Virus genome (UHGV): UHGV-2025275
Strand: one strand, 5' to 3'
DNA from: a virus
Length of the DNA: 64,000 nt
Within the stretch, counting starts at the first letter, position 1. Each line of letters starts with the position of its first letter. Both the position numbers and the translations under genes were made by a program. The notes under the pieces are model-generated. The model worked only from the letters and a program-made list of their open reading frames with translations. It searched no databases and was not told where the DNA came from. Positions 4,912 to 57,859 of this stretch are shown here, one piece after another.

Positions 4912-7900
4912 TTAAGCCAAAGAGATGGAGCCGGTTGTCCTGTACATGGAGATAACCCCTGTAAATCGGAACTGCCCGCTATCGCCACGATTAGGCCACT
5001 GGATCGTGATATTCTGCGTTTGGCCGTAATTTGATGCCGGTATACGAATGGAGAAAATTGAAGTTTCAAAATTTTTACCTTCGTTACCTGAATCAAATGT
5101 CCATACAACTGTTTCATCAACGCGGATTGTTACGTTTTGACGCCAAACCTGCTGAATAATAATAGACCCGTTAAACACCATACGACGCTCAAATGGCATG
5201 CCCTGCACAGTAGCTATAGGATACCGAGTACCTGATGATGTATCGGCTGTAGAAGGCCAGTTTTTAACAACACGGTCGGTCATTGTCACAACATCACCAA
5301 CAATTTTATTAGCTTGCACTGTGCCAAGCACAGTGCAGTTCTCATTAATAGTCACGTTGTTAAGTACGCCAGTATTTGCGTGAACTTCGCCTCTGATATA
5401 TACATTACTGAATCTGGAACGACCATCTTTGTTGATAAACCACGTAGGATATCCATCACTTTCACGACTATCAGAACTAATTTCTTGCGCGATTTTCGCA
5501 TTGGTGATGGAGCCATCCTTAATCACAGCGGCATTCATGTAGGCAACGCCATTTTCCACAACAAATGGTGTGGTAGTGTTTCCGTTAGAGGTATTGATTA
5601 AGCCGAAGCGATCAGCCTGAACCAGAAACTGGCTCTGCAAATTTTTGCCATCGATACCTAAAGCGATACCAGCAGCATACTTTTTACCGTTGCTGTTGGT
5701 TTCCATTTTGACCATCCAGGTGCTATTAACGTTGCCGTTTTCAACAACCGTTTTCTTCAGCTCCTGCAGCTCGGCAGACTGGCCTCCTACCTGGGCCGTT
5801 AAATTCGTTTGCTGCTGAGACAGCGCACTAATCGTTGTGGCCTGAGTCTGCTGAGTTGATTTAATTGCCGCCATCGAAGTGGTGGCGTTATTCAACTCCG
5901 TCTGGTTCTTGATGTTTGCCGATGCCTGCGCATCAATTTGCGACTGCAAGCTGGTATTCAGCGACGACTGCGTTTTCTCGTTGTTGGTGATGGTTTGCGC
6001 CATCTGATCAACCTTCGAAGACGCATCGTTCACCTGGGACGTCAAAGAGGACAGCTGAGACGCCTGGGATGTCACCTGCCCTTCTACATTGGTAACACGT
6101 GAGGTAAGGCTGGTGAGCGCGGATGCGTTCGCATTAGCCGAATCTTTAGCCTCTTTTGCGTCGGTGATATCGGTGACAACAACGTCATCGATATACAGAT
6201 CATACCCCGGTGTACCAGTGCCAGTTGTGCCGCGGGTAGATACCCAAAATGCGCCGCGAGTGTGGCCAGCGGCTACACGGAGCGTACCGGTGAATTTCTT
6301 CCATGCGCCTCTTGCACCCAATGCGGCTTCATTGATAGTGATTGCCGTCGGCCAGTTATTGTTGTTGGCAGCGTTTTGGGTCTGCAAACCAACGAGCGTT
6401 GACCACCCAGAGGATGGCGACTGATCTGCCGGCATCATCGCCCAGAGTTCAATGCGGAATACCGCATTTTCACGCAGAGCAATCCACTTACCGATGGTTT
6501 TATCGCTGTTTCCGCCCTCACCGGCGCCGCGGGAAACACGCAACGACTTCGTTCCGCTTCGTTTCTGAGAGCTGACGACGACCGCACGCGAGCCGCTGAT
6601 CTGCTGGTTTTCGGAGTACGTCTCCAGAGAACCATCAAACCACGGGTTGCTCCCCATCGCCTGAACAGTACTCAAAGAGTTTTTGAACGAAGTTGTCTGG
6701 CTGCTCTGGGTTTCAATTTCTTTCTCGTTCTGCGTGACGCGATTCGTTAATGCCGTTAACGCAGCCGCATCAGCTTTCTTCGAAACATTTGTGTTTGTGG
6801 TAGCAAGGTCATTCTTAAGTTGCGTAACCTGGCTGCCCTGGCTGGTGATGTCATTCTCTGTCTTGGTCACACGACTATCGAGCTTAGTGATCGCGCTCGA
6901 GTTCGCCTGAGTTTCAACAGAGTCGGTCACATCGACGACATAAAAATCATCAAAGTACATCGCGCCGGCTGACAAGAAAGCAGTGAACTGAACGTCAGCA
7001 AGGACATCCTTTGTCGCCTTCCATGTCCAAGACACCTCCTGCCAGTTAGAGGTGAACGGGCCATAAGCCTTACTTGCGATCAGGCCATTACCGTCCGCCA
7101 CACGGAATTTTGTATTGTCGGTCGACTGAATGGTGGTATTAGGGTCCTGCTTTGCCCAAATTCCAATTTTGTACGACCGATCCTTCTTGAAGGAGATCTT
7201 CTGGCCTACGCCTGCAGAACCACCCGCTGCTAGTTTGGCGGCTTTGGTGCCAAGATGTGGAACCTGCAGCGTTGCCACCGTGGCAATACCGCTCCAACCA
7301 GTGTAGCCCTCCGTACCACGCTCAAAAGACGGGTTTACGATCAGGTTACCGGGGATCTGGCTTGCTGCATCCACGCTGGCGTTACTGGACGCAAGGCTGT
7401 TTTCCAGCGCTGTTGTCGAGGAGCTCAGGGAGTCAATATTATCCCCTTGGGTCTTCACTGTATTCTGGAGCGTGGTAATTGCAGATGCGTTCGCATCAGC
7501 CTTCATCATCACACCACCAGCGGCGCCCAGCCCCATCATTACCCCGTTCACAAACTCGACTGAGGTCGAAATGTGGGCGGTGCCGTCGCCACCGGTTGGC
7601 GCACGCAGTTCCAGACCATCGCCCGGCTTCATACCTTTGCGGCCAAGGAGAATGTAGGCGCCACGATACGGCAGAGAGTTAACGACTTCGGAAGTGCCAC
7701 CAAGAGATTCCAGGGCAGACAACACCTTACCTCGGTTGCCAGTTGGCTCATCGAATGTCAGGACGCAAACGTAAGTCCCACTGGCCAGTGCCTCGATATC
7801 AGCCGACATCGTGGCGCCATTATTCGCGCTGCCAAAGACATCGTATGTTTTGGAGGTCGCAATCACCGTTGATCCGTCGCTGTGTTTTGCAAAAGTGACC

Positions 7901-13900: not shown

Positions 13901-16900
13901 TTATCATCTTCCGTCCAGCCTTCGGCGTCCTGGTCGAAATACCAGATTTTCAGAGAGTCAAACTGTTCCCCTGTGCCAGCGGCAATCTGCGAGATCTGTC
14001 GCGCGAGGTTTTCGTCACCGGAGGTCACAACCTCAGACAAGCTATCGATAGAGGTTTTCAGCTCATTCTTCGCGCTCAGCAGTTGGTCGGCCGCTTGCTT
14101 GGCTGCATCATTAACATCTGCAATACGGTCATTCGTCTCTTTCTGAATGGCCGCAGTCAGATCTTTGCTGGTCTGGGACAGCGACGTTGTCAGTGATGAC
14201 TGCGCATTCTTAATCTCCTGCGACAGAGCAGCGTCGCCGTCTTTAATCGACTGTTTTGCAGCTTCAATTTGGCTGTTTACGTTGGAGATGTTGGTATTGA
14301 TCGTCTGGTTGACCGTATCGATATTGTCGACAATTGTCTGATTGACGGTATCAATGTCCTCTTTCAGCGACTGATTGACAGAGTCAACCTGCGCCTTAAT
14401 TTCGGAGGAGGTTTGCGCAAGGTCGTTTTCAACTTGCTGAATAGACTCGTTGACTGAGTTCTGAACCTCGCCAATGGCGTTGTCTACCGCCTCCTGAGTG
14501 GCTTTGCTGTCGATTTCGTCGAGCAGCTCTTTGCCGAGTTCAGAAGATGTGATCTTGTCTTTCAGGAAAGACAATACGTCGCGAGTGGTGGCCTCTGTAC
14601 CGAGGTTCGAGTTCGGCTGGCCTACCATCCCACGTTTGTTTACCGCACGAATCCAGTAATACCAGGTCTCGTTGTCACCCAGCCCAGCGTGAGTGAAAGT
14701 CGTTGTGGCGGCCTGAGCAATGAGTGTCGCGGTGTCCAGCTTATTTGTTTTGGACGCATACACGTTGATCTGCGCGAGGTCGACTGAATCAGGGTTAACC
14801 CAATTCAATACCACGTTACGATAATCCCCCACCGCGGTCAGTGATGTGGGCGCCCCTGGCGGCGTCATCGTGCCTTTTACCTGATAGACAGCAGTAATAA
14901 TCTCGGATTTTTTGCCGCCGAAGGAAACGGAATACAGCTGGAAGTCATATCGCCCATTTTCGGCAACATTGACGATTTCATATTGTTCTTCCGTGGCGCG
15001 GGCAGATTGCCAGTTGGAGACGTTGCCCTCGTCGGAGCGGCGCCAGCTGACCCAGTATTCTGGTGATTTACCTTCCCAGGCAAGCATCAGCTTCACGGAC
15101 AAGTTGCCCGGACTGGACAGATAGGTGCCTTCTGAGATGACCAGATTGCTCGGTTTGGAATATGTGGGATCAAGAACCGTCGTATTTTCTGGAACGAGCG
15201 CGGCCCCGTTATCAATCGCCTGGTACTTAGATGCATTGTTCTGCACCACCGTGATATCAAACGACCCCGGGGTTTCACCTTGCGCGATAGCGACAACGCG
15301 CGCCCGCATTGGAACCAGGTCTGGTTCGGTGATCGTCCAGACGCCATTCGCTACTGGTTGATCGGCTGTGGCCAACGCCGTCTTGAAGGTAACTTTAGTG
15401 ATGTTGTCGCCGGTCTCGTTGATGTCTCGCTCAACGATTTTGCCTTCCTGATTGATGATACGGATGAAGCTACCGCTCTTTTTCAGAGAGACAGGTGCAT
15501 CGAGGGTGATGCTGTTTTTGGTGAAAGAGACAATGCGACCGGAATTGCGTTTGCCGGCACGATATTTGTTCTGGATCAGAACGGTTTCGCCCGGCATCAG
15601 GAACGAGGCGTCTAGGCCCGCGGTAAAGGTGATCATGTCTGACTCCATACGCGCGGTATAGAGCAGCCACAAACCTACACGATGAGCCTGACCACGGCTG
15701 GTGCATCCGAACGCAACGGCCTCGGTCTTGCGCTCCCCGTATCGGGCCATCGCTTCCTGATCTTCAACATACTCAACGTTCTGCTTATAGCCGTCTTGTT
15801 TGTTGTTATAAGTGATCAGCGCTACGGACGGCCGGTCTTTTCGAGCAGAGCCTTTATAGGTAAACAGGCCATCTTTTACGTTTGCGTTGGTAAACAGCAT
15901 GACAGGATCAGACGGGCTGTCCTGCATGATATTCACCATGCCACCAGCCCAGAAAACCATGCCACGGAAAGCACCGGCAATATCCTGAATCAGACGATAA
16001 GCGTCCTGACGACTGGTGATCTGGGTGTTGATTGCAAAGCGTTTTTCTTTGCCGCCAAAGCCATCATCAACCTCTTCGTCGCAGTAGCGACCGATCTGAT
16101 AAAGCTGGCCAAGGTCAATCATTGACTCCGAAACAAATTTGCCGAGGCCATAACGAGCATTGGTCAGCAGATCGAACAGAATCCAGGCAGGGTTGGAAGA
16201 CGACAGAAGTTTAAAGGTTCCATCCCAAACGCCGTTATAAGTGTTCGTGTTTTCATCATAATTCGAAGGCACACGGATTTTGAGGCCACGGATAAGATAC
16301 GAACGTGACGGCATAGAGCTACCAAACTGCTCAGAGTTAACCTTAAGGCCAACCAGAACGGAGTTCGGGTAGTTCATTGGGGTGTCAACGATCTCACCGA
16401 TAGAGTCGACCCAGGTATCGTTAAAGAGATACTGATCGTTGCTGTCGGCGGAGAGACGAAGCACGCGCACTTTATAGGCACGCCCAGGCTTTGGAAGCTG
16501 GATTTCGTAACTGCGGTAGTAGACACCAGTCTTTTTCGCAGTCAGCGTCACGTCAGAGCTGCTCTCACCTGCAGCAATCACGTCATAGAAAGAGCCATTG
16601 CCGTTGGCCAGCTGGAACTTAAACTGGACCGAAGTACCGTTTGTGTCCCCTGTTTTCTTGTCAATGTTCCGCAGCGACGGGAACTTCATGATCACTCGGA
16701 CACGATCAGCGTCGTCGTTATCGATGGCGACCGTAACCGCATTTGTGGTTTTCAGCTGTGTGTTAACGGCCTTTGGCGTTTCGACAAAATCGAAACCAGG
16801 CATCGGGCTTTGGTCTTGCGAACCATCCCGGAAATCCCAAGTTACACCGGAACGGTTGAATGAACCGTCTTCGTTCTGTAGCGCCACACCATCGACGAAG

Positions 16901-17101: not shown

Positions 17102-17713
17102 TTACAGTTGGTCTATGGTGATTGAAGAACTCACAATCTGTGAGCCAACTAAAATTTCCTCGCCGTAATTAAGCTGAACCGGGTTTCCCTGGTTGCTGGT
17201 GTTTTGAGGCCCATCGAAGTAAAACGAATCCGTGTTATCCGCCTGTCTGACAGACGCATTTGATGCCTGCGGCGAAATCAGCATGGACACACCGCCCATC
17301 ATCAATGACATCCCTCCCATCACCAGCGCGGAAGACGCACCAAAAGTCAGCCCTGAGGCCAGAGCGCCGACAGCGATCATCGCGGCGCCCACGAAAGTAT
17401 GGAACCACCCAAACGCCTTACCACCGCTGCCACGTGGTACGGGAGTAATGCGGATTTTTGCGATATTTTCCGACTCGCCCATCATCTGGTATTCGGTGTC
17501 GTCCATTGACCACTTGTGGCCCTGCTTATTTGTGACCTGGATGTGGTACTTATCGAAGTGGTTACGGTTACGCTTAATCCAGGCTTTAAAGCCCGGGCGA
17601 TTCGCCTCAATCAAATCGATGGCTTGTTTGGTGTTGCGCACCTTCAATTTCCAGTGGCGGCCAAAGTTCTTTGCCATCGCACCGCCGAGCTGAACATGAA
17701 CTAATTCAGACAC
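17102..17713 (-). CDS. I: Tail assembly protein I (lambda gpI-like)
   Basis: 203 aa located between K and J. Shows the lambda gpI-like layout of a ubiquitin-like N-terminal region followed by a C-terminal glycine-rich hydrophobic segment (GAAMIAVGALASGLTF). Confidence 0.7.
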   Translation of the reverse strand: MSELVHVQLGGAMAKNFGRHWKLKVRNTKQAIDLIEANRPGFKAWIKRNRNHFDKYHIQVTNKQGHKWSMDDTEYQMMGESENIAKIRITPVPRGSGGKAFGWFHTFVGAAMIAVGALASGLTFGASSALVMGGMSLMMGGVSMLISPQASNASVRQADNTDSFYFDGPQNTSNQGNPVQLNYGEEILVGSQIVSSSITIDQL

Positions 17714-47495: not shown

Positions 47496-48061
47496 TATTA
47501 CTTAAATCTCTTAACTAGTTGTTTTCTTATTTTAGTTATTATCAGAGATAAGAATAGGTAGAAAACATTTTGTTTGAAGCAGTGCGGCTGCCTCGATACT
47601 GTCATAGCGATAATCAGGCGCATAGTGTCAAAGCTAAGTTCAGATGTTAGGGGCAGGGCAAAGTTGAAATGTCCACTTCGTGCCAGGAGCGGAAGTTGCT
47701 AAGTTTGGTCTGCATTAATTTGAAGGGAGCAGAACACATGAGCCAAGAACGAATTTCTGCGAAATTTTTTTCGTGCACCGCGGAGGTGAAAGGTCATAAA
47801 TGGTACGCCAGCACCGACTTTACCTAGCTTTTTTTAAGTTCAGCAGCAAAACCTGCCTTGCAGGTTTCCTGCGTCGGGATAATCGATACTGAACCTTGTG
47901 CATACCGTTCTCATCAGTTAAATTAAAGATTCCACACTCTTTACCGATATCACCTTGGTTCTTGCTTGTGATGCGTTCAGTGTTCAGCGCTGTTTGCTGT
48001 AGCCCTCCAGACTGATTACAGACTGCCTCTTAAAAGCCAATCCTTACTCTAAAGGGAACTT

Positions 48062-49003
48062 ATGAGATTAAAATACTCAGCACTCTTACTCGCCGTTGCC
48101 ATTACAGGCTGTGATAACAAAAAAGACGTGATCGGTTGTTCCTCTGAAATGACCCAGTCAGCTCTCATGGATTTAATAAAAAAATCTGCTTATGAAGGTC
48201 TCTCTGAACAGGTCGACAAATACCCTGACGTCACTAATCAGACCAAACGAAGCGCTTTGGACAAGATTAAACTGACCATCTCTGAAATCTCCACAACTTC
48301 AAGTGACACGGGCAGCACAATGAAAACTTGTGAAGGGACCGTGACGATGACCCTACCTGCGAACGAGTACGCACAGCTTTCTGATGCTTACAGAAAGAAC
48401 TTTAACCGTAATCTCGACAAGCAAATGGAAAGCCTGTCTTTGGATAACAACGCAAACGCCTTTTCAAAACGCATCTCCTACACCGCACAGGCAACCGACG
48501 ATCAGAAAAACGTTTTTGTGAAAGCTACTTCTAACAACCCAATATCAGTGGGTGCCGCTGCACTGACATCGCTTTCCATCATCAACCCGATCGTTGAGCA
48601 GCAAAAAATCCAGCAGGCTAAGGATGCCCAGCGAAGTCAAATTGAAGCGGAACAACAAGCACAACTCAGGGCGCAGCAACAGGATAAATATGAGGCGGAG
48701 CAGCAGGTTCAGCAAACCATTCAACAACAATCCTACCAGCAGCCTCAGCAACAAAAAGCTGACAACCTTGATCAGTCCCGAATGGCTTTTGCGAATGCTG
48801 ACTCTGATTTGAATACCGCTTGGAGCACATTAACACCAGAGAAGAAAAAAGAGTTGCTGCCTTCTCAGCGCCAGTGGATCAAAACTAAGGACGCTATGTG
48901 CGGCAAAGTTTCAATGCAGGGAACAGATGCTGAAGTCAAGAAAATGGTCGACTGCCAGACGCAAATGACCCTTTCAAGGACCGCGTTCTTCAGAAATCAA
49001 TAG
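48062..49003 (+). CDS. Lipoprotein with a Gln-rich linker and a C-terminal DUF1311 (LprI/lysozyme-inhibitor-like) domain
   Basis: MRLKYSALLLAVAITGCDNKKD has an LAITGC-type lipobox. QQKIQQAKDAQRSQIEAEQQAQLRAQQQ is the linker. The C-terminal LNTAWSTLTPEKKKELLPSQRQWIKTKDAMCG is the DUF1311 signature. Confidence 0.6.
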   Translation: MRLKYSALLLAVAITGCDNKKDVIGCSSEMTQSALMDLIKKSAYEGLSEQVDKYPDVTNQTKRSALDKIKLTISEISTTSSDTGSTMKTCEGTVTMTLPANEYAQLSDAYRKNFNRNLDKQMESLSLDNNANAFSKRISYTAQATDDQKNVFVKATSNNPISVGAAALTSLSIINPIVEQQKIQQAKDAQRSQIEAEQQAQLRAQQQDKYEAEQQVQQTIQQQSYQQPQQQKADNLDQSRMAFANADSDLNTAWSTLTPEKKKELLPSQRQWIKTKDAMCGKVSMQGTDAEVKKMVDCQTQMTLSRTAFFRNQ

Positions 49004-50340: not shown

Positions 50341-52044
50341 TTATTTTATGCGTTTGAAGACATACACACTGACAGTTATCCCCGTGTCATCAAACTCGCC
50401 TGTGAACGACTTACCTTTGGCGTAGACGAAATTCTCCAGCATCATCCAGTTCAGGGTTGGTGAGTCCCCCGGCAAAACAGCAACAAGGCGCCCGCCGACT
50501 TTAAGATGCTCCAGCGCGGCCAGCGTATGCTCTCTGTGACGGCCAAGAGAGTAGGGCGGGTTCATGACGATTTTGTCGAACTGATAGCCTGCGTTGTCCT
50601 CAGACCACTTCATGAAGTCACAGCAGACCGTATTTGTGTACCCCTTGCCAAGCAGGATATCAGCGAAGAGAGGTGCGACTTCTATGCAGGTAACGTCTTC
50701 CGGATTGGCGTCGATGCAGGCCAACAGATCTCCGCGCCCGGCTTCAGGCTCCAGCAGCTTCTCACCTGGCTTCAGCTCGATGGCTCTGGCAACGTACTCC
50801 GCTATCAAACGTGGGGTAGGGTAGAACTGGTGTGATTTTGTATCCGGTATTAAGCCGGTGGCCACAATCGTATTGAGCGTATGGCCGATCTCATACGGGA
50901 ACTGCCAGTGCTTTTTCTCCTGCACGCCGCCAATGAAGTTCAGTGTGCGCTCAAGCTCTTCCACCTGTGACTTCTGTAGGTTGGAATCAGAGAAGTACCA
51001 GACGCCTTTGTCTTTGCTGAATCGCCCGTCGCGCAGCGCGGTACGAACCGGCTCGGAGATCGTCTTCTGGATTAACCCGAACTCTTTTGGTGCCCGTATT
51101 TTGGGTGCAGTACGGCATGGCGCCGGGATTGCTGCAGGCATACTGTAAGCCAGCACCTCATTCAGCTTCCAGGCCACGTCAGGATGTATTTCAAAGTGAA
51201 CGTTGCCGTTCTTGAACATCTTCACGCGCATCAGGTTTCCGTCGACATTCATCCAGTCACCGGTCTGGCAGTCGTTTGCCCGGTACGCAGCTGATAGCAT
51301 CTCAGTTGTGCGGTTGATGGTGATGAACTCTTTGTGTGCGAAGAAATGAAGCATGACGCGCAGGTCGTCGATGTAGTCCTCTTTCCGGTAGTTCACGCTG
51401 ACGCTGTCCCGCCAGAACTCTGAAATGCAGCTGGCGATGATCAGCCGCTCGCTAAAGCCGTTCGTTTTATTGGTCTTGTGCGCAGGGCTTAGCGCCTTAA
51501 ACAAACCGTACACGCGCTCAGAGAGATATTTATGCCTGTCATTCAGCAGATTGACCATCGTGGGGATGACCGTCTCTGCTTTGAACTCAGGTACGCCAAC
51601 GAACTCCTTAACCTTCATCTGGTAGCCGGTTCTGTCAGTCTTGATGGTTTCCTGCTTGCCTTCTATGAACTGTTCGCGCCACTCATCTCGGCGGGAAGCT
51701 GGCATGATCAGCAGAACGTTTGTCATATCTGTGACCTTCTTCCAGTATTCGGCCCAGATATTCTGCTTCACCCACTCAAGATCGACCTTATCCAGCCAGG
51801 CTCTGTTGAAGCGTGTGCGTTCGTCATCCGGCCGGTGGTTGAGTCGAAGCAGGCGGTTAATCATGTTGTGACGCTCATCGCCATAAACGAAGTCGTGAAC
51901 CTGATGCATGAATGCGATCTCTTTCTCGCACTCGGCCACAATTTCGTGGATGACGTTCATTTCCTGCCGGTAGTCGATATCAGTGTTTGGGGTGATAGCG
52001 TCAATGATGGAAAGGGCTGTATTCATGATTGCACCATTAAACAA
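50341..52044 (-). CDS. Gamma-class N6-adenine DNA methyltransferase with a large (about 400 aa) N-terminal domain of unknown function
   Basis: The C-terminal third has motifs in gamma order: FYPTP, then motif I LEPEAGRGDL, then motif IV NPPYS. No restriction endonuclease partner is visible. The start may be M7 (52026). Confidence 0.7.
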   Translation of the reverse strand: MFNGAIMNTALSIIDAITPNTDIDYRQEMNVIHEIVAECEKEIAFMHQVHDFVYGDERHNMINRLLRLNHRPDDERTRFNRAWLDKVDLEWVKQNIWAEYWKKVTDMTNVLLIMPASRRDEWREQFIEGKQETIKTDRTGYQMKVKEFVGVPEFKAETVIPTMVNLLNDRHKYLSERVYGLFKALSPAHKTNKTNGFSERLIIASCISEFWRDSVSVNYRKEDYIDDLRVMLHFFAHKEFITINRTTEMLSAAYRANDCQTGDWMNVDGNLMRVKMFKNGNVHFEIHPDVAWKLNEVLAYSMPAAIPAPCRTAPKIRAPKEFGLIQKTISEPVRTALRDGRFSKDKGVWYFSDSNLQKSQVEELERTLNFIGGVQEKKHWQFPYEIGHTLNTIVATGLIPDTKSHQFYPTPRLIAEYVARAIELKPGEKLLEPEAGRGDLLACIDANPEDVTCIEVAPLFADILLGKGYTNTVCCDFMKWSEDNAGYQFDKIVMNPPYSLGRHREHTLAALEHLKVGGRLVAVLPGDSPTLNWMMLENFVYAKGKSFTGEFDDTGITVSVYVFKRIK

Positions 52045-53997: not shown

Positions 53998-54492
53998 TCA
54001 GTCACAGCAGAAGGAAGATCCGGAGTTGCAGGTCGAGTTGGAATCGTGTCCAACAGCATCCCATCCAGAGAGACAGGAGGTCGTTCTGGCAGGGGTGTCG
54101 TCTGCAAGGTTGTGGTGGAAGTAGTTGTGTCCGGTATCAACAGACTCTGACCGGCTGGTACGGCTACCGCTGCCAGGGTTGCTAAAATTACTCCGTAGGC
54201 CATTGGCTTCAGTCGATTTCGTTGAAAATTTTCCATGAGAACTGTCCTTGTGCGTCTGGGATTCACGCAACACACGAGAGGCGACGGAATCACGCACCTT
54301 CTCCATGCCTACTGTCGCACCCAGATTTGCTATGGCGGTAGCTTGCGCATCAATGCGCTTCTCCAGCTCAAACACTCGTTCTTCCAGTTCCGCAAGGCGT
54401 GCAGAAACACGACCGCTAAACAGCTCGGTCAGAACCAGGCGAATTGAACGGGGACGTTTATTGAAAGAAGTGAAAGGCGTTTGACGTGCCAT
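53998..54492 (-). CDS. Hypothetical protein with an N-terminal coiled coil. It extensively overlaps the other-frame ORF 53985-54293, which has a signal-peptide-like start, so its extent is uncertain.
   Basis: The N-terminal 80 aa look genuine (RLAELEERVFELEKRIDAQATAIANLGATV). The C-terminal half is Ser-rich and low-complexity, while the alternative frame encodes MAYGVILATLAAVAVPAGQ.... A frameshift or two overlapping genes are both possible. Confidence 0.35.
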   Translation of the reverse strand: MARQTPFTSFNKRPRSIRLVLTELFSGRVSARLAELEERVFELEKRIDAQATAIANLGATVGMEKVRDSVASRVLRESQTHKDSSHGKFSTKSTEANGLRSNFSNPGSGSRTSRSESVDTGHNYFHHNLADDTPARTTSCLSGWDAVGHDSNSTCNSGSSFCCD

Positions 54493-54616
54493 TTGGATTC
54501 CATTCAGTGTCAGAAAGAGTTGCGGCTGGCCAAGCCAGCCGCCTTTTGGCGTTCCATCCTGGAACAGTACCTAACCGGTACTTCGTCATCCTGACGAACG
54601 GTAAGATACCTGATTT

Positions 54617-54648
54617 AAAATGATAGGTAAATACTTACCTATCATTTT
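54617..54648. repeat. Dispersed palindrome family copy, 32 bp (AAAATGATAGGTAAATACTTACCTATCATTTT)
   Basis: Near-perfect palindrome. Confidence 0.85.
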
Positions 54649-54848
54649 GTGACAAAAATCCAATATCACGCTTGTGAGGCATATCAGCTGCGGAGTAGAC
54701 GGCGATCTTCGACAGGCGGTCACACATTAAGTCGGCTTTGAGCGAGGAGCGGACGTTGACTTAGCCGGATCGCTTAGGGCTTTTAATATTACTGGCGCGG
54801 ATTTCTGGGATACTTTCAAGCTCTTTCCTCAACTAAAACGGAAAATTT

Positions 54849-54886
54849 CGGCGGACTTTCTACTAGATAGTCCGCCATTATAGTTG
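54849..54886 (-). terminator. Terminator-like hairpin after the DUF262 gene
   Basis: On the minus strand: GGCGGACU aucuaguagaa AGUCCGCC GAAAUUUUCC. Confidence 0.5.
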
Positions 54887-54900
54887 CTTTTATATAGTTA

Positions 54901-56583
54901 TTAATCAACCTTCCAAACGTTGACAGCTTGCTTTGACATCCATTTCTGAAAATCATTGACAGTTTCTAAATTCCACTCTGCATATTCAGTGACTTTTGAA
55001 GCCAGAAAATATCCAGATTTTGTATATTCTTTTTTCTTATCTTCAAATGATGAGCGCTTTAAGTTATCTTTATCCATTAAAATCATGTTTCCAAGCCTAT
55101 CTTTTACATCATTAATTCCTTCACCAAAAGAATCGCACCATTCTTTTTCGGGGTGATAAGGACAAATATGTTCTAATGTGGTTTTTTCATAATCACATTG
55201 ATTACCTAAATGCCCCTCAATCTCAGAAAGTAAAAACCGTATTTTTTTTGCCGTTTGCCTACTTGGCATCCTATGAAACTCAAAAGCATTAAAGAATGAA
55301 TTATCATCAGGATACAAGCGTTTAAATTCTTCACTATTTTTTACATGACTAGCTCTTAAAAACTCTCGATTATAAACTTTGTTAGCAATTTGATTGTAAA
55401 TATTCTCTTGCTCGCTGGGCGATAAGTGGCAAATAACGTTATAACGAATAGATAATACGTATAAATATCTTACGAGTTTAACAAACTCTTCAGGAGAAAA
55501 GTTACCGAAGGCAGCAAGGAATATCGTAAGTGGTTGCTTGATATTGAATAACCTTATTCCATTAAGATAATGCAAAACATTTCTGTATTTCTCATCTTGA
55601 TCTCCCCACCATGCATCATTAGGGTTAATCAATGATGCATAGATAGGTGAGTAGTCAATTAATGATTTTAAATACTGATACGCTTCTTCCGGTTTCGTTA
55701 ATATCTTTCTCATAGAGGAAAACAGGTTGTTCTTAGTGACCATTTTTCTCTGCGAGTTATAGTGATATCTAATGTAATCAGAAACATTGCTTTCGCCAAG
55801 TTGGACGATCATTTCTGACCATTGCTCGTCCAAATCATTGAGTTCATCTTCTCCGATTTGATCATCTTTTGTCACAATTGAGAATAAATAGTTCTTAAGT
55901 AGATCTGGGGTGGAAAGTTGAACACCTCTCGCATTCAAAGTTTCAAAAACTTTATAAGCATTAAGATCATCTTGCACTATTATCTTTGTGAAAACCATGC
56001 TCGAAGAAAAATCTGCAATGAACTGAGCAATATCAGCACCTGTTCTACCAAAATCTTTCTTAGTAAAAAAATCAAAACATTTTCTTATCAATTTATTAGT
56101 CGATGTTATACCTCGAGGATTTTGAGTCTCTAAATGCGATGACATTCTTTGAAAATAACTTTTATTGTTTCTATTTAGTTCTAATTTATTAATCACTTTG
56201 AGCGTAACGAAGTTCTTACTTCCTACAAAGTTTTGAGTTATACCATTGAGTCGCTCAGTGTTTCCCTCTACATCCTCTCCATTATCAATTAAGGTTTTGA
56301 TAGCTTTCATTGCAGCCAGAACTATAATCGATAACGTAACTAAACGTTGTTGCCCATCGATAATTTCATGTTGATACTGTTCTTTTTGCTGAAGGACAAT
56401 GTAGCCCATATAATGGAACCCTTCATCATCAAGTGCATTTATATCCCCCCACAAGTCCTCCCATTGCCCCACATCCCATGCGTAGTCTCGCTGGAACCTG
56501 GGTACAATATATTTGTTTGGACCACCAATTAATTCATTAAAATTCTCATTTTTTGGTTCCATCAACATAAATTGCTTTGCCAT
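54901..56583 (-). CDS. DUF262 (ParB-like NTPase) plus DUF1524 (HNH-like nuclease) protein of the GmrSD/BrxU/SspE-like family, carried in an AT-rich island
   Basis: 560 aa. The N-terminus PRFQRDYAWDVGQWEDLWGDI carries the DUF262 (D/E)GQQR-type motif (HEIIDGQQRLVTLSII). The C-terminal region has the His-containing DUF1524-like segment TLEHICPYHPEKEW. The nucleotide composition is visibly more AT-rich than the flanking phage genes. Confidence 0.65.
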   Translation of the reverse strand: MAKQFMLMEPKNENFNELIGGPNKYIVPRFQRDYAWDVGQWEDLWGDINALDDEGFHYMGYIVLQQKEQYQHEIIDGQQRLVTLSIIVLAAMKAIKTLIDNGEDVEGNTERLNGITQNFVGSKNFVTLKVINKLELNRNNKSYFQRMSSHLETQNPRGITSTNKLIRKCFDFFTKKDFGRTGADIAQFIADFSSSMVFTKIIVQDDLNAYKVFETLNARGVQLSTPDLLKNYLFSIVTKDDQIGEDELNDLDEQWSEMIVQLGESNVSDYIRYHYNSQRKMVTKNNLFSSMRKILTKPEEAYQYLKSLIDYSPIYASLINPNDAWWGDQDEKYRNVLHYLNGIRLFNIKQPLTIFLAAFGNFSPEEFVKLVRYLYVLSIRYNVICHLSPSEQENIYNQIANKVYNREFLRASHVKNSEEFKRLYPDDNSFFNAFEFHRMPSRQTAKKIRFLLSEIEGHLGNQCDYEKTTLEHICPYHPEKEWCDSFGEGINDVKDRLGNMILMDKDNLKRSSFEDKKKEYTKSGYFLASKVTEYAEWNLETVNDFQKWMSKQAVNVWKVD

Positions 56584-57517
56584 TTAATCAATTCCCGTTA
56601 TTTTAAAATGACGTCATCATAAGGCTGCTAATTATTAACAAGGAAATATGACGAAAGTTTGCATAATTTTGATGTACTATGAACAATTCAAGCATTAAAA
56701 GGGACTCTTGACGCTCGACTTCATAAAAGATAATCATCTAGGCAGCCTTGAGCAAGCTATAGAGTTGTTAAAAGTCATCCTATATATCTAAACCACTGTC
56801 TGGAGCAACTGTAACTTAGAGCGCGAACACTCAAGAATCCCCGCTGGTAGTGGCAACTTTTGACAATTCGCTCCCATCGCCGGTTGACTGGCCTGTCCTC
56901 AGTTGATTAACACATTTTGAGGTCAGCTATGTCCGCTTATGGCACATTGAAGACATTGCGATGGGCGATTTTTTTCTCTCGCGCGCGTGCGTGTAAATAT
57001 TAAAAATGTTTAGAAAATAAAAACTTACTTCCCAGAACAGGTTTTAATAAAACCTGAACTGAACGAACGAAGTGAGTGAAGTTCACCTCGAACGAAGTGA
57101 GAGGTTGTCTTTTCAGGTAATACTCTCCCAGGGAGGTGAGTACAAAATCTCCTCACCAACCTGGTCGTTACATAACCTGAAAAGTTATGACCTAAGTCTA
57201 CTGCCAGCTTAGGCTTGGGAAGTTATGGATGACAGCACCCCAGAACCGAGATCTTCCCACACTTTATGAAGGGGAGTACTGGATTCAACCTCTCGAAACA
57301 CTCCAGACTCGACAATCATAAAGTGACCCTTCTCTCCGCTCACTTTGGTTCCCCCTTCCCCAACCCCTAAGCGGTGCCGGTTCTACGCTGGTAGTGAGCT
57401 TTTTTAAACCTGACGCCAGTGACGCTATCCCCCACCCATCAGGTCGAGCTGCCGGAATCAATCCGGAAAGCGAGTGGATTTTATCACTGGCGATCTGCGT
57501 TTTAAATGGTAAGTACT

Positions 57518-57531
57518 TACCGATTATTTCG
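57518..57531. repeat. Dispersed palindrome family core (GGTAAGTACTTACC)
   Basis: Perfect 14-bp palindrome overlapping the stop of gene 57524-57754. Confidence 0.75.
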
Positions 57532-57754
57532 ATTGATTATTTTCTCGACCATGAAGCTGGACGTTCAGGGCAAACACCTCATTGATGAGTTCCCCTAACA
57601 GCTGCTCCACCAGCTCTTTGTGCTCGCCTGAATGAAGACATTTGAGCGACCATTCGTAGAGACTGAAAGCCTTATCGCGATCTTTCATCATGTCGCGCAC
57701 TTTGGCCAGAAAATCGCTCTCAACGAGCGCTACGACGTTCGTCGGGTATACCAT
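57524..57754 (-). CDS. Small hypothetical protein
   Basis: 76-aa ORF downstream of element B. Confidence 0.4.
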   Translation of the reverse strand: MVYPTNVVALVESDFLAKVRDMMKDRDKAFSLYEWSLKCLHSGEHKELVEQLLGELINEVFALNVQLHGRENNQSK

Positions 57755-57859
57755 GATAGTTTTCCTTACTGTGGTTCATAAAATCGATTCTAGAGCGTCT
57801 GAAGAGGGGTTCCAGTGGGTTCTGGAGGTGTAAAACGGTCTGGGAGTTGTTTGGAAATC

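Follow-up and report, generated by a model that had tools for sequence, protein, structure and literature searches.

The closest described relative of the gene studied here is HEC-06 (Hma-embedded candidate 06; WP_096851903.1, 560 amino acids (aa), from Escherichia coli MOD1-EC1687), which Payne et al. (bioRxiv 10.1101/2024.01.29.577857) tested together with a second GmrSD-like Hma-embedded candidate. HEC-06 alone reduced plaquing in E. coli K-12 deltaRM, each of the substitutions Q79A, R80A, E471A and H472A eliminated its defence while an S46A variant was still active, and the protein was non-toxic in the unmodified E. coli K-12 deltaRM host (bioRxiv 10.1101/2024.01.29.577857). According to a later preprint HEC-06 blocks T4, and in the same work a 22%-identical Bacteroides homologue protected against T-even phages but not against unmodified T4-GT7. 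HEC-06 has moreover been listed among the defence systems exclusive to Salmonella enterica SSU5-like phage-plasmids (2025 preprint, bioRxiv 10.1101/2025.09.12.675607), and finding such a gene on an element of this kind is therefore in itself known biology. We here analyze a HEC-06-type gene found in 64,000 nucleotides (nt) of the virus genome UHGV-2025275 (below called the window). The most interesting result is its packaging in a cassette bounded by two short palindromes, a cassette type common to the fun(Z) gene of phage P2 and many prophage defence genes.

The gene occupies positions 54901..56583 on the minus strand, starts with ATG, stops with TAA and is the sole long open reading frame (ORF) of its region, as delineated using the ORF list, Pfam, PADLOC and identity to the tested protein. 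The encoded 560-aa protein has an N-terminal DUF262 NTPase domain (PF03235 GmrSD_N, residues 16-234, E 9.6e-36, 124 bits with a Pfam cut-off of 33.2), followed by a helical linker and a C-terminal DUF1524 His-Me nuclease domain (PF07510 GmrSD_C, residues 424-551, E 2.9e-15, 56.8 bits with a cut-off of 23). The NTP-hydrolysis motif DGQQR is located at residues 76-80 (56344..56358, minus strand) and the His-Me/HNH nuclease motif EHICP at residues 471-475 (55159..55173, minus strand), encompassing Q79 and R80, and E471 and H472, respectively, all essential in the tested HEC-06. A GNMILMD stretch is found downstream of EHICP in the protein (55072-55092, minus strand). The gene is intact, with 100% coverage as compared to more than 80 homologues of 560 aa. 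Its GC content of 0.342 makes it the lowest-GC stretch of 1,683 bp in the window, about 4.4 standard deviations (SD) under the mean of 0.500 (SD 0.037), with corresponding values of 0.36 for the complete replaced segment (see below) and 0.505 for the remainder of the window. The initial annotation of this DNA had described a low-GC, 560-aa DUF262/DUF1524 ORF with a DGQQR motif and had suggested profile searches with Pfam and PADLOC together with windowed GC measurements. These analyses gave both Pfam domains above their gathering thresholds, a match to the HEC-06 profile and a GC content of the ORF far below the distribution in the window, and this central observation was thereby correct and far beyond chance.

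Judged by its sequence, the ORF can firmly be assigned to the HEC-06 family. The PADLOC HEC-06 model PDLC04154 matched with 714.7 bits (E 2.1e-215), aligning residues 1-560 with positions 1-567 of the 569 in the profile, and when compared with the first 399 residues of WP_096851903.1, the protein displayed 322 identical positions out of 399 (81%), with 92% positives and without gaps. All of the four residues required for defence in the tested HEC-06 (Q79, R80, E471 and H472) are kept at identical residue numbers, and the two proteins agree in length (560 aa), domain order, motif positions and, by prediction for the present copy, single-gene action, while differing in setting: the tested protein is Hma-embedded on a chromosome, whereas the copy found here stands by itself as a cassette in a phage-plasmid. 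Klebsiella, Enterobacter and Citrobacter commonly carry homologues with 93-98% identity. Within PHROGs the protein falls into the unnamed family phrog_21165 only, and an NCBIfam search using the protein gave no match. The gene is also solitary, its neighbours being different on the SSU5 backbone, in P4-like satellites and at each of two prophage positions.

The previous assignment of the locus to the type IV restriction enzymes GmrSD, BrxU or SspE stands at the level of domains but not of the exact family, this being HEC-06 and not BrxU, SspE or GmrSD proper. Like GmrSD and Eco94GmrSD, the protein joins, in a single chain, a DUF262 NTPase to a DUF1524 His-Me nuclease located C-terminally and carries the DGQQR and (D/E)H motifs, and an anti-T-even role has been reported for the family; the likeness is, however, at the domain level only, with the best PADLOC type IV model giving E 6e-13 as compared to 2e-215 for HEC-06. 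BrxU (HEC-05) and SspE share the GmrSD-like architecture, an NTPase-gated nuclease and a role in phage defence. The RLFDS motif of BrxU was absent from the 560-aa protein, no BREX or ssp genes adjoin the HEC-06 gene here and, among solved structures, the BrxU and SspE chains were not retrieved by phmmer at E<=1. HEC-06 and BrxU have been reported to share 23.7% identity across 11% of the length and to differ in predicted quaternary arrangement (bioRxiv 10.1101/2024.01.29.577857). The solved structure closest by sequence was instead that of DndI (PDB 9JFL), matching with E 1.7e-18 in two stretches covering both domains. DndI of Salmonella Cerro 87 (NAR 2024, PMC11662687) similarly combines DUF262 carrying DGQQR with a C-terminal HNH-type nickase, but it acts together with dndBCDE and cuts unmodified DNA, with phosphorothioate (PT) releasing it from self DNA (PMC11662687), and a dnd context is absent here. 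Residues P23/Y25/Q26, which form the PT-sensing patch in DndI, correspond in the alignment to P28/F30/Q31 of the present protein, the Tyr being replaced by Phe.

We consider it very probable that the window carries an intact, horizontally acquired, single-gene HEC-06 (GmrSD-like) anti-phage system, with the mechanism and delivery proposed here. The reading of the locus as a defence moron was borne out. The gene has a terminator of its own that is conserved with it, and it belongs to a validated defence family. By analogy with GmrSD, BrxU, SspE and DndI, the N-terminal ParB-like NTPase domain would sense a feature of incoming DNA, and NTP hydrolysis would license the C-terminal nuclease to nick or cut that DNA, a mechanism for which the mutants of the close (81%-identical) homologue provide the basis. 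The feature sensed would most likely be the hypermodified cytosine of T-even-type phages. The DNA of the phage-plasmid itself would be spared, with the element carrying only adenine methyltransferases and ordinary dTMP-synthesis genes, and in a lysogen the gene should exclude competing lytic phages. A dependence of HEC-06 on hydroxymethylcytosine (hmC) or glucosyl-hmC is thus suggested by its relatives, while a targeting of deazaguanine would be pure speculation.

Several points weigh against this interpretation. The modification dependence is extrapolated from the 22%-identical homologue and from other GmrSD-like enzymes, and DndI, the nearest solved relative, works in the opposite manner, cutting unmodified DNA and being restrained by phosphorothioate. 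Defence by this particular copy is predicted from a homologue of which only the first 399 residues entered the comparison. Position 46 is Gly here and Ser in the tested HEC-06, although that Ser is dispensable there, with the S46A mutant having stayed active. Finally, a minus-strand sigma-70 match of at least 9/12 was absent from the conserved leader upstream of the gene (56584-56847).

Of the other explanations for the gene, the one that survives best is that it encodes a functional HEC-06 nuclease with a trigger other than a modified base, and with a spectrum beyond hmC/glucosyl-hmC phages. We regard this as unlikely but not far-fetched: HEC-06 is structurally unlike GmrSD, BrxU and SspE and has a phage spectrum unlike that of BrxU (Payne et al., bioRxiv 10.1101/2024.01.29.577857), DndI cuts unmodified DNA and the literature surveyed reports no experiment with unmodified T4 for an enterobacterial HEC-06, while both the reported blocking of T4 by HEC-06 and the sparing of T4-GT7 by the HEC-06-like Bacteroides protein speak for a modified base, and the lack of toxicity of the tested HEC-06 in unmodified E. 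coli K-12 deltaRM argues against a nuclease attacking ordinary DNA. It is considerably less probable that the gene is silent or decaying cargo, brought into the rnhA slot described below by chance recombination and without benefit to the element. Such decay would agree poorly with a full-length ORF having all catalytic residues present, with a 264-nt leader and a terminator that are conserved alongside the gene and with the 99.8% identity maintained in plasmids from peanut butter, peppercorn and a 2006 patient, even if the cassette is rare (3 of ~686 related plasmids, all of one 109,917-bp S. enterica type), the promoter scan gave no match and the outer arm of the upstream boundary palindrome is degenerate. 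An effector of DndI/SspE type, dependent on or restrained by host dnd/ssp PT marks and useless or toxic without them, can almost be dismissed, for although DndI 9JFL was the only solved structure retrieved by sequence, PADLOC SspE models matched weakly (E 1e-11 to 4e-7) and the PT patch could be aligned, the likeness to DndI is remote (~70 bits as compared to 715 bits for HEC-06), the PT-sensing Tyr is a Phe, dnd/ssp genes were adjacent in none of the contexts examined (SSU5 backbone, satellite and prophages) and the 81%-identical HEC-06 defends alone in E. coli K-12, a PT-system-free host.

With regards to the element carrying this putative HEC-06 defence gene, the flanks were found to be 97.3% identical to Salmonella phage SSU5 and 98.1% identical to S. 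Typhi pHCM2, agreeing with the phage-plasmid first proposed as host and making it, by a flank identity of 97-98%, one of SSU5/pHCM2 type. Using BLAST breakpoints against pHCM2 (L002 5420/5966) and SSU5 together with the junction sequences, the whole replacing segment could be placed at 54729..56968. Homology to pHCM2/SSU5 ends at 54728 and resumes at 56969, with 2,240 bp replacing 545 bp of backbone that constitute most of rnhA, encoding RNase HI, and the 30 bp upstream of rnhA. The true limits of the island are thereby 54729 and 56968, and not 54660-56640 as given before. What remains of rnhA is its last 31 codons and the stop codon (54635..54728, minus strand), collinear with pHCM2 rnhA (L002 5327-5420) and with a translation ending in ...CDRLSKIAVYSAADMPHKRDIGFLSQNDR before the stop; the intact pHCM2 rnhA protein matches PF00075 RNase_H with E 6.7e-46. 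The left junction is sharp (...CACATT / AA GTCGGCT...), and the right junction shows CGA-T7 microhomology.

Among ~686 flank-matching plasmids in PLSDB, three contained the cassette, at 99.8% identity, and nearly all of the others listed hold rnhA in the slot. All three are S. enterica plasmids of 109,917 bp, with serovar Tennessee as the origin of the one examined, and each has an IS110-family insertion sequence (IS) element just 3' of the gene, which the window lacks. The cassette DNA was found in no phage record and in no complete E. coli genome searched. The analysis is of value for annotation, since the 'DUF262 domain-containing protein' of three RefSeq/GenBank plasmids can be read as HEC-06, and it identifies rnhA-type and HEC-06-type plasmids, otherwise ~98% identical, as a clean natural experimental pair. 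Other cargo is found in the same slot, with JukA/JukB in K. pneumoniae pGYB02-1 (L009 1621-3233) and a betT/DUF2254/IS3 insertion in Citrobacter pRHBSTW-00127_3 (L011 6907-12065), and the right-hand breakpoints of the rnhA-slot insertions are all within 42 bp of one another. The rnhA slot of SSU5-like plasmids is a minor hotspot.

Two related palindromes were found at the ends of the replacing segment. At the upstream boundary of the cassette is an A site, GTCTTCA-ATGTGCCATA-AGCGGAC (56931..56954, minus strand), having a degenerate outer arm with 3 mismatches, and at the downstream boundary a B site, GTCGGCT-TTGAGCGAGG-AGCGGAC (54731..54754, plus strand), having 1 mismatch and located 2 nt from the backbone junction. 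The consensus of the A site is a 24-bp palindrome, GTCCGCT-nnGTGCCAnn-AGCGGAC, while the B site has the same 7-bp arms around a spacer nnGAGCGAnn and is inverted relative to A; 20 of the 24 site positions are near-invariant. In a Klebsiella prophage copy of the cassette (L012, sites at 5630-5653 and 7872-7895), homology with the window extends over 2,215 bp at 95.1% identity (56945-54731), beginning inside the A spacer (56945) and ending at the outer edge of B (54731). As this homology spans nearly exactly the segment that is foreign to the SSU5 backbone, the transferable unit should be of ~2.2 kb, with a short tail beyond the terminator. When copies of one cassette were compared between different contexts, homology stopped 0-1 nt from the outer edges of the sites, and in the A spacer the first two bases are those of the context and the last two those of the cargo, with the switch falling inside a 6-nt stretch. 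In the window, SSU5 backbone sequence begins 2 and 14 nt outside the sites, and a resident A or B site was absent from the rnhA slot in relatives. In the S. Tennessee plasmids, the IS110-family element (PF01548 and PF02371; L001 4499-5985, NZ_CP014995.1) is located precisely where the spacer of the B site meets its inner arm (window 54747/54748), which suggests that the site is a specific IS target. IS110-family elements target defined repeated sequences.

The alleles closest to that of the window (96-98% aa identity) are solitary in Klebsiella lambdoid prophages, beside replication/nin or tail-fibre genes. A common satellite allele (95% aa identity) takes the last cargo position in integrase-AlpA-D5 primase islands (P4-like satellites), and these copies have 87.5% DNA identity with the window over 56847-54851. 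We propose that the gene arrived as a ~2.2-kb unit composed of the A site, a 155-nt element, the leader, the ORF, the terminator and the B site; the same unit is present in Klebsiella lambdoid prophages and, minus the A site, in P4-like satellites. The unit would have replaced the RNase HI gene in this SSU5/pHCM2-type lineage, with the slot of relatives taking other cargo (JukAB).

The boundary palindromes proved to be widespread. At least 120 contigs of IMG/VR and no fewer than 120 genome contigs contained the exact 20-base A pattern, with less than one match expected by chance according to our estimate. Within the viral loci (L021-L140) at least 75 A->...<-B units of 0.5-5.8 kb were seen, mostly with defence cargo, and ~20 adjacent B/A doublets had offsets of 39-51 nt (most commonly 42 nt) and a conserved 18-nt linker. 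Neighbouring cassettes are connected through such doublets, which provide homology of up to 66 bp. PADLOC models matched 12 of 20 representative cargo proteins, including PD-T7-1, DarT/DarG, TIR, NsnA, PDC-S33 and HNH effectors, with the other 8 having no such match; by eye, part of the A/B-bounded cargo looks metabolic. Insertion points that recur include a P2-type slot between tail-fibre assembly and sheath genes and a lambdoid DUF977...DUF968 region. In phage P2 itself (L261), fun(Z) is flanked by an A site at 15335-15358 on one side and by a degenerate B site (~17445-17468) on the other. The settings sharing these sites are the fun(Z) locus and G/FI hotspot of P2, the replication/nin regions of lambdoid phages, plasmids of F type and the phage-plasmid studied here. 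Palindromes having the same 7-bp arms and various spacers were also found in Xanthobacteraceae (Pseudolabrys and Methyloceanibacter metagenome-assembled genomes; L141-L260, e.g. L176, L169 and L194), at up to 20 per 8 kb and in doublets and triplets with a ~45-nt period. These look like a repeat family resembling repetitive extragenic palindromes (REP) or bacterial interspersed mosaic elements (BIME) that is related to the enterobacterial A/B sites.

The locus thus resembles the P2 fun(Z)/Z-fun locus and the P2/P4 defence hotspots (Rousset et al. 2022, PMC9122126) in that low-GC defence cargo is exchanged in a temperate element at one fixed position, and A and B sites are carried by many of the cassettes from the G/FI slot of P2; it differs in having a phage-plasmid of SSU5 type as the recipient and rnhA as the slot. 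Boundary palindromes are unmentioned in the modern P2/P4 hotspot literature that we surveyed (including Rousset et al. 2022, PMC9122126). Literature text searches using the site sequence gave unrelated papers only. The title of a study by Nilsson et al. from 2004 reportedly proposes site-specific recombination at the variable loci of P2, and that study may already describe the palindromes for this phage. The palindromes provide a sequence-level handle on the hopping of defence genes among P2-like and lambdoid prophages, plasmids and phage-plasmids, a matter left open by the hotspot literature surveyed, and the two short site patterns form a simple search key for new defence cargo.

As for how the cassettes move, it could well be, although we would not call it probable, that the A/B palindromes are conserved junctions (akin to REP-type repeats or insulators) at which relaxed homologous recombination by Rad52-like phage recombinases swaps cargo, with no dedicated recombinase involved. 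No recombinase gene accompanies the cassettes throughout, the neighbours always differing, and the 20 near-invariant positions of 24 together with the 18-nt doublet linker give the up to 66 bp of homology that such swapping could use. The same-arm palindromes furthermore behave as dispersed clustered repeats in Xanthobacteraceae, and the junctions in the window, at 2 and 14 nt outside the sites and with CGA-T7 microhomology at the right one, fit the same view. Less easily reconciled with homologous recombination are the ends at which homology between copies stops, 0-1 nt from the outer edges, and the context-to-cargo switch within the 6-nt spacer stretch, a precision more typical of site-specific exchange, as well as the IS110-family element placed exactly at the boundary between B spacer and arm. 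We also suggest, tentatively and as a rather unlikely possibility, that HEC-06 belongs to the cargo of a widespread and perhaps largely undescribed exchange system for accessory, mostly defence, genes, with exchange occurring inside the site spacers. If a dedicated enzyme (a host or phage recombinase, or an HUH protein resembling REP-associated tyrosine transposases (RAYT)) does act on the sites, it would amount to an integron-like cassette mechanism lacking a linked integrase, and such exchange would explain the refilling of defence hotspots.

When unoccupied sites were sought in IMG/VR using the two commonest flank pairs with a gap of 0-30 nt, no exact match was obtained. The small tyrosine recombinase (PF00589) of cassette c50 was rejected as a general partner, being limited to only two protein copies. 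Integron cassettes (attC) and Acinetobacter pdif modules are similar in being promoter-poor units of 0.5-6 kb with short imperfect inverted sites, each a pair of 7-bp arms around a spacer, and with junction doublets between adjacent cassettes. Such sites are targets of IS110/IS1111-type elements. The arms and spacers found here are, however, unlike those of dif/pdif and the cargo can have either orientation, and an identity with integron attC was rejected, with the GTTRRRY/RYYYAAC core lacking and a linked integron integrase or attI not found in the window, prophage or plasmid contexts.

Three non-coding features travel with the gene. An intrinsic-terminator-like hairpin (54850..54876, minus strand) is found 25 nt past the stop codon, with 13-nt arms (54850-54862 and 54864-54876) that are 92% complementary, a deltaG of -20 kcal/mol (z = -4.15) and a U-rich tract thereafter (GAAAUUUUCCGUUUU on the minus strand); it lies within the homology shared with the prophage and satellite copies. 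An upstream leader of 264 nt (56584..56847, minus strand), presumably containing the promoter, is conserved in every HEC-06 copy examined, the mean column identity being 89% in alignment A2 of five contexts, and the homology of the satellite copies begins at its outer end (56847). The upstream edge of the cassette is formed by a conserved ~155-nt non-coding element (56799..56954, minus strand) that begins with the A site. Aligned over 7 unrelated contexts, this element had 68% mean identity with a 10-nt indel (alignment A1; nhmmer 158 bits), and all contexts have it upstream of HEC-06, the satellites with only its 3' two-thirds. Further copies, at 70-74% identity, lie beside or upstream of unrelated genes in prophages and on plasmids of F and other types (L010 3999-4158, L016 3499-3660, L017 3499-3661, L018 3506-3664 and L020 5000-5140), several of these genes matching defence models for Hp1-Hp3, a NucC-like nuclease and PDC-S39.

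Having a 10-nt indel, the 155-nt element is not coding. It was also rejected as a structured RNA, with z = -0.9 and -0.1 on the two strands, as were the A/B sites (z = -1.5 and -0.7), and an Rfam search of 54400-57800 at E<=1 gave no match. As a promoter for HEC-06 the element was rejected because neither it nor the leader has a minus-strand sigma-70 match of at least 9/12. By our own reading of alignment A1, it contains an invariant TTGTCA that lacks a -10 box at a fixed distance because the 10-nt indel comes after TTGTCA, and a TGGCAC on the opposite strand that is not followed by TTGC. The cargo lies either way relative to the A site, which further weighs against the element being a cargo promoter. 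Finally, an identity as a miniature inverted-repeat transposable element or high-copy E. coli repeat was rejected, with 106 of 5,426 genomes giving a match, in one copy each and mostly over a 36-nt stretch.

The initial annotation had the island bracketed by two hairpins, of which the one after the stop codon was confirmed (54850-54876). The other, given at 54521-54548, belongs to the backbone and is also found in the cassette-free pHCM2: a GC-rich terminator-like hairpin of 9 bp with 8 GC pairs (54522..54542) is located outside the cassette, in backbone DNA that is 98.7% identical to pHCM2. From its sequence and position we take it to be an old terminator downstream of rnhA and not an island bracket. 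A proposed AT-rich leader of 800 bp does correspond to a non-coding stretch, but one of 940 nt (56584-57523) with a GC content of 0.44, of which only the 385 nt at 56584-56968 (GC 0.405) arrived with the gene, the other 555 nt (GC 0.463) being intergenic DNA conserved in SSU5-type plasmids that lack it.

The coexistence of the nuclease gene with two orphan adenine methyltransferase genes had also been called worth examining. Both the DUF4942-type adenine methyltransferase gene (50341-52044) and the Dam-type one (PF05869, 57959-58576) are core backbone genes of SSU5/pHCM2, present with or without the cassette; their coexistence with HEC-06 is therefore incidental, and nothing points to their working as a pair. 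In the DUF4942 protein, the methyltransferase part at the C-terminus gave a partial match to the PADLOC 'mad2' model (E 6.5e-16, residues 400-539) as well as matches to type II methyltransferase models, the former probably being generic methyltransferase similarity.

Some additional features of the backbone were noted. A second A-like site, GTCCACT-TCGTGCCAGG-AGCGGAA (47671-47694), is followed by an ORF of 313 aa (48062-49003) with an LprI (lysozyme-inhibitor) domain, in a region with a GC content of 0.41-0.47; no B partner was found for this site and the 313-aa ORF had no PADLOC match. Another variable spot is a Rha-family regulator gene (PF09669, 52849-53691), missing in the S. Tennessee plasmids and with a different, Ant-like gene in its place in SSU5. 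A perfect 14-nt inverted repeat (AAAATGATAGGTAA / TTACCTATCATTTT) at 54617-54648 overlaps the rnhA stop codon, with a 26-nt copy at positions 1016-1041 of L001 and L003, adjoining the DUF4942 methyltransferase gene, and may be an operator-like backbone motif. The 555 nt of non-coding backbone at 56969-57523, without any Rfam match, are 98% identical to pHCM2 and ~80% identical to a Klebsiella relative, and contain two exact 13-nt direct repeats, CGAACGAAGTGAG, at 57064 and 57089.

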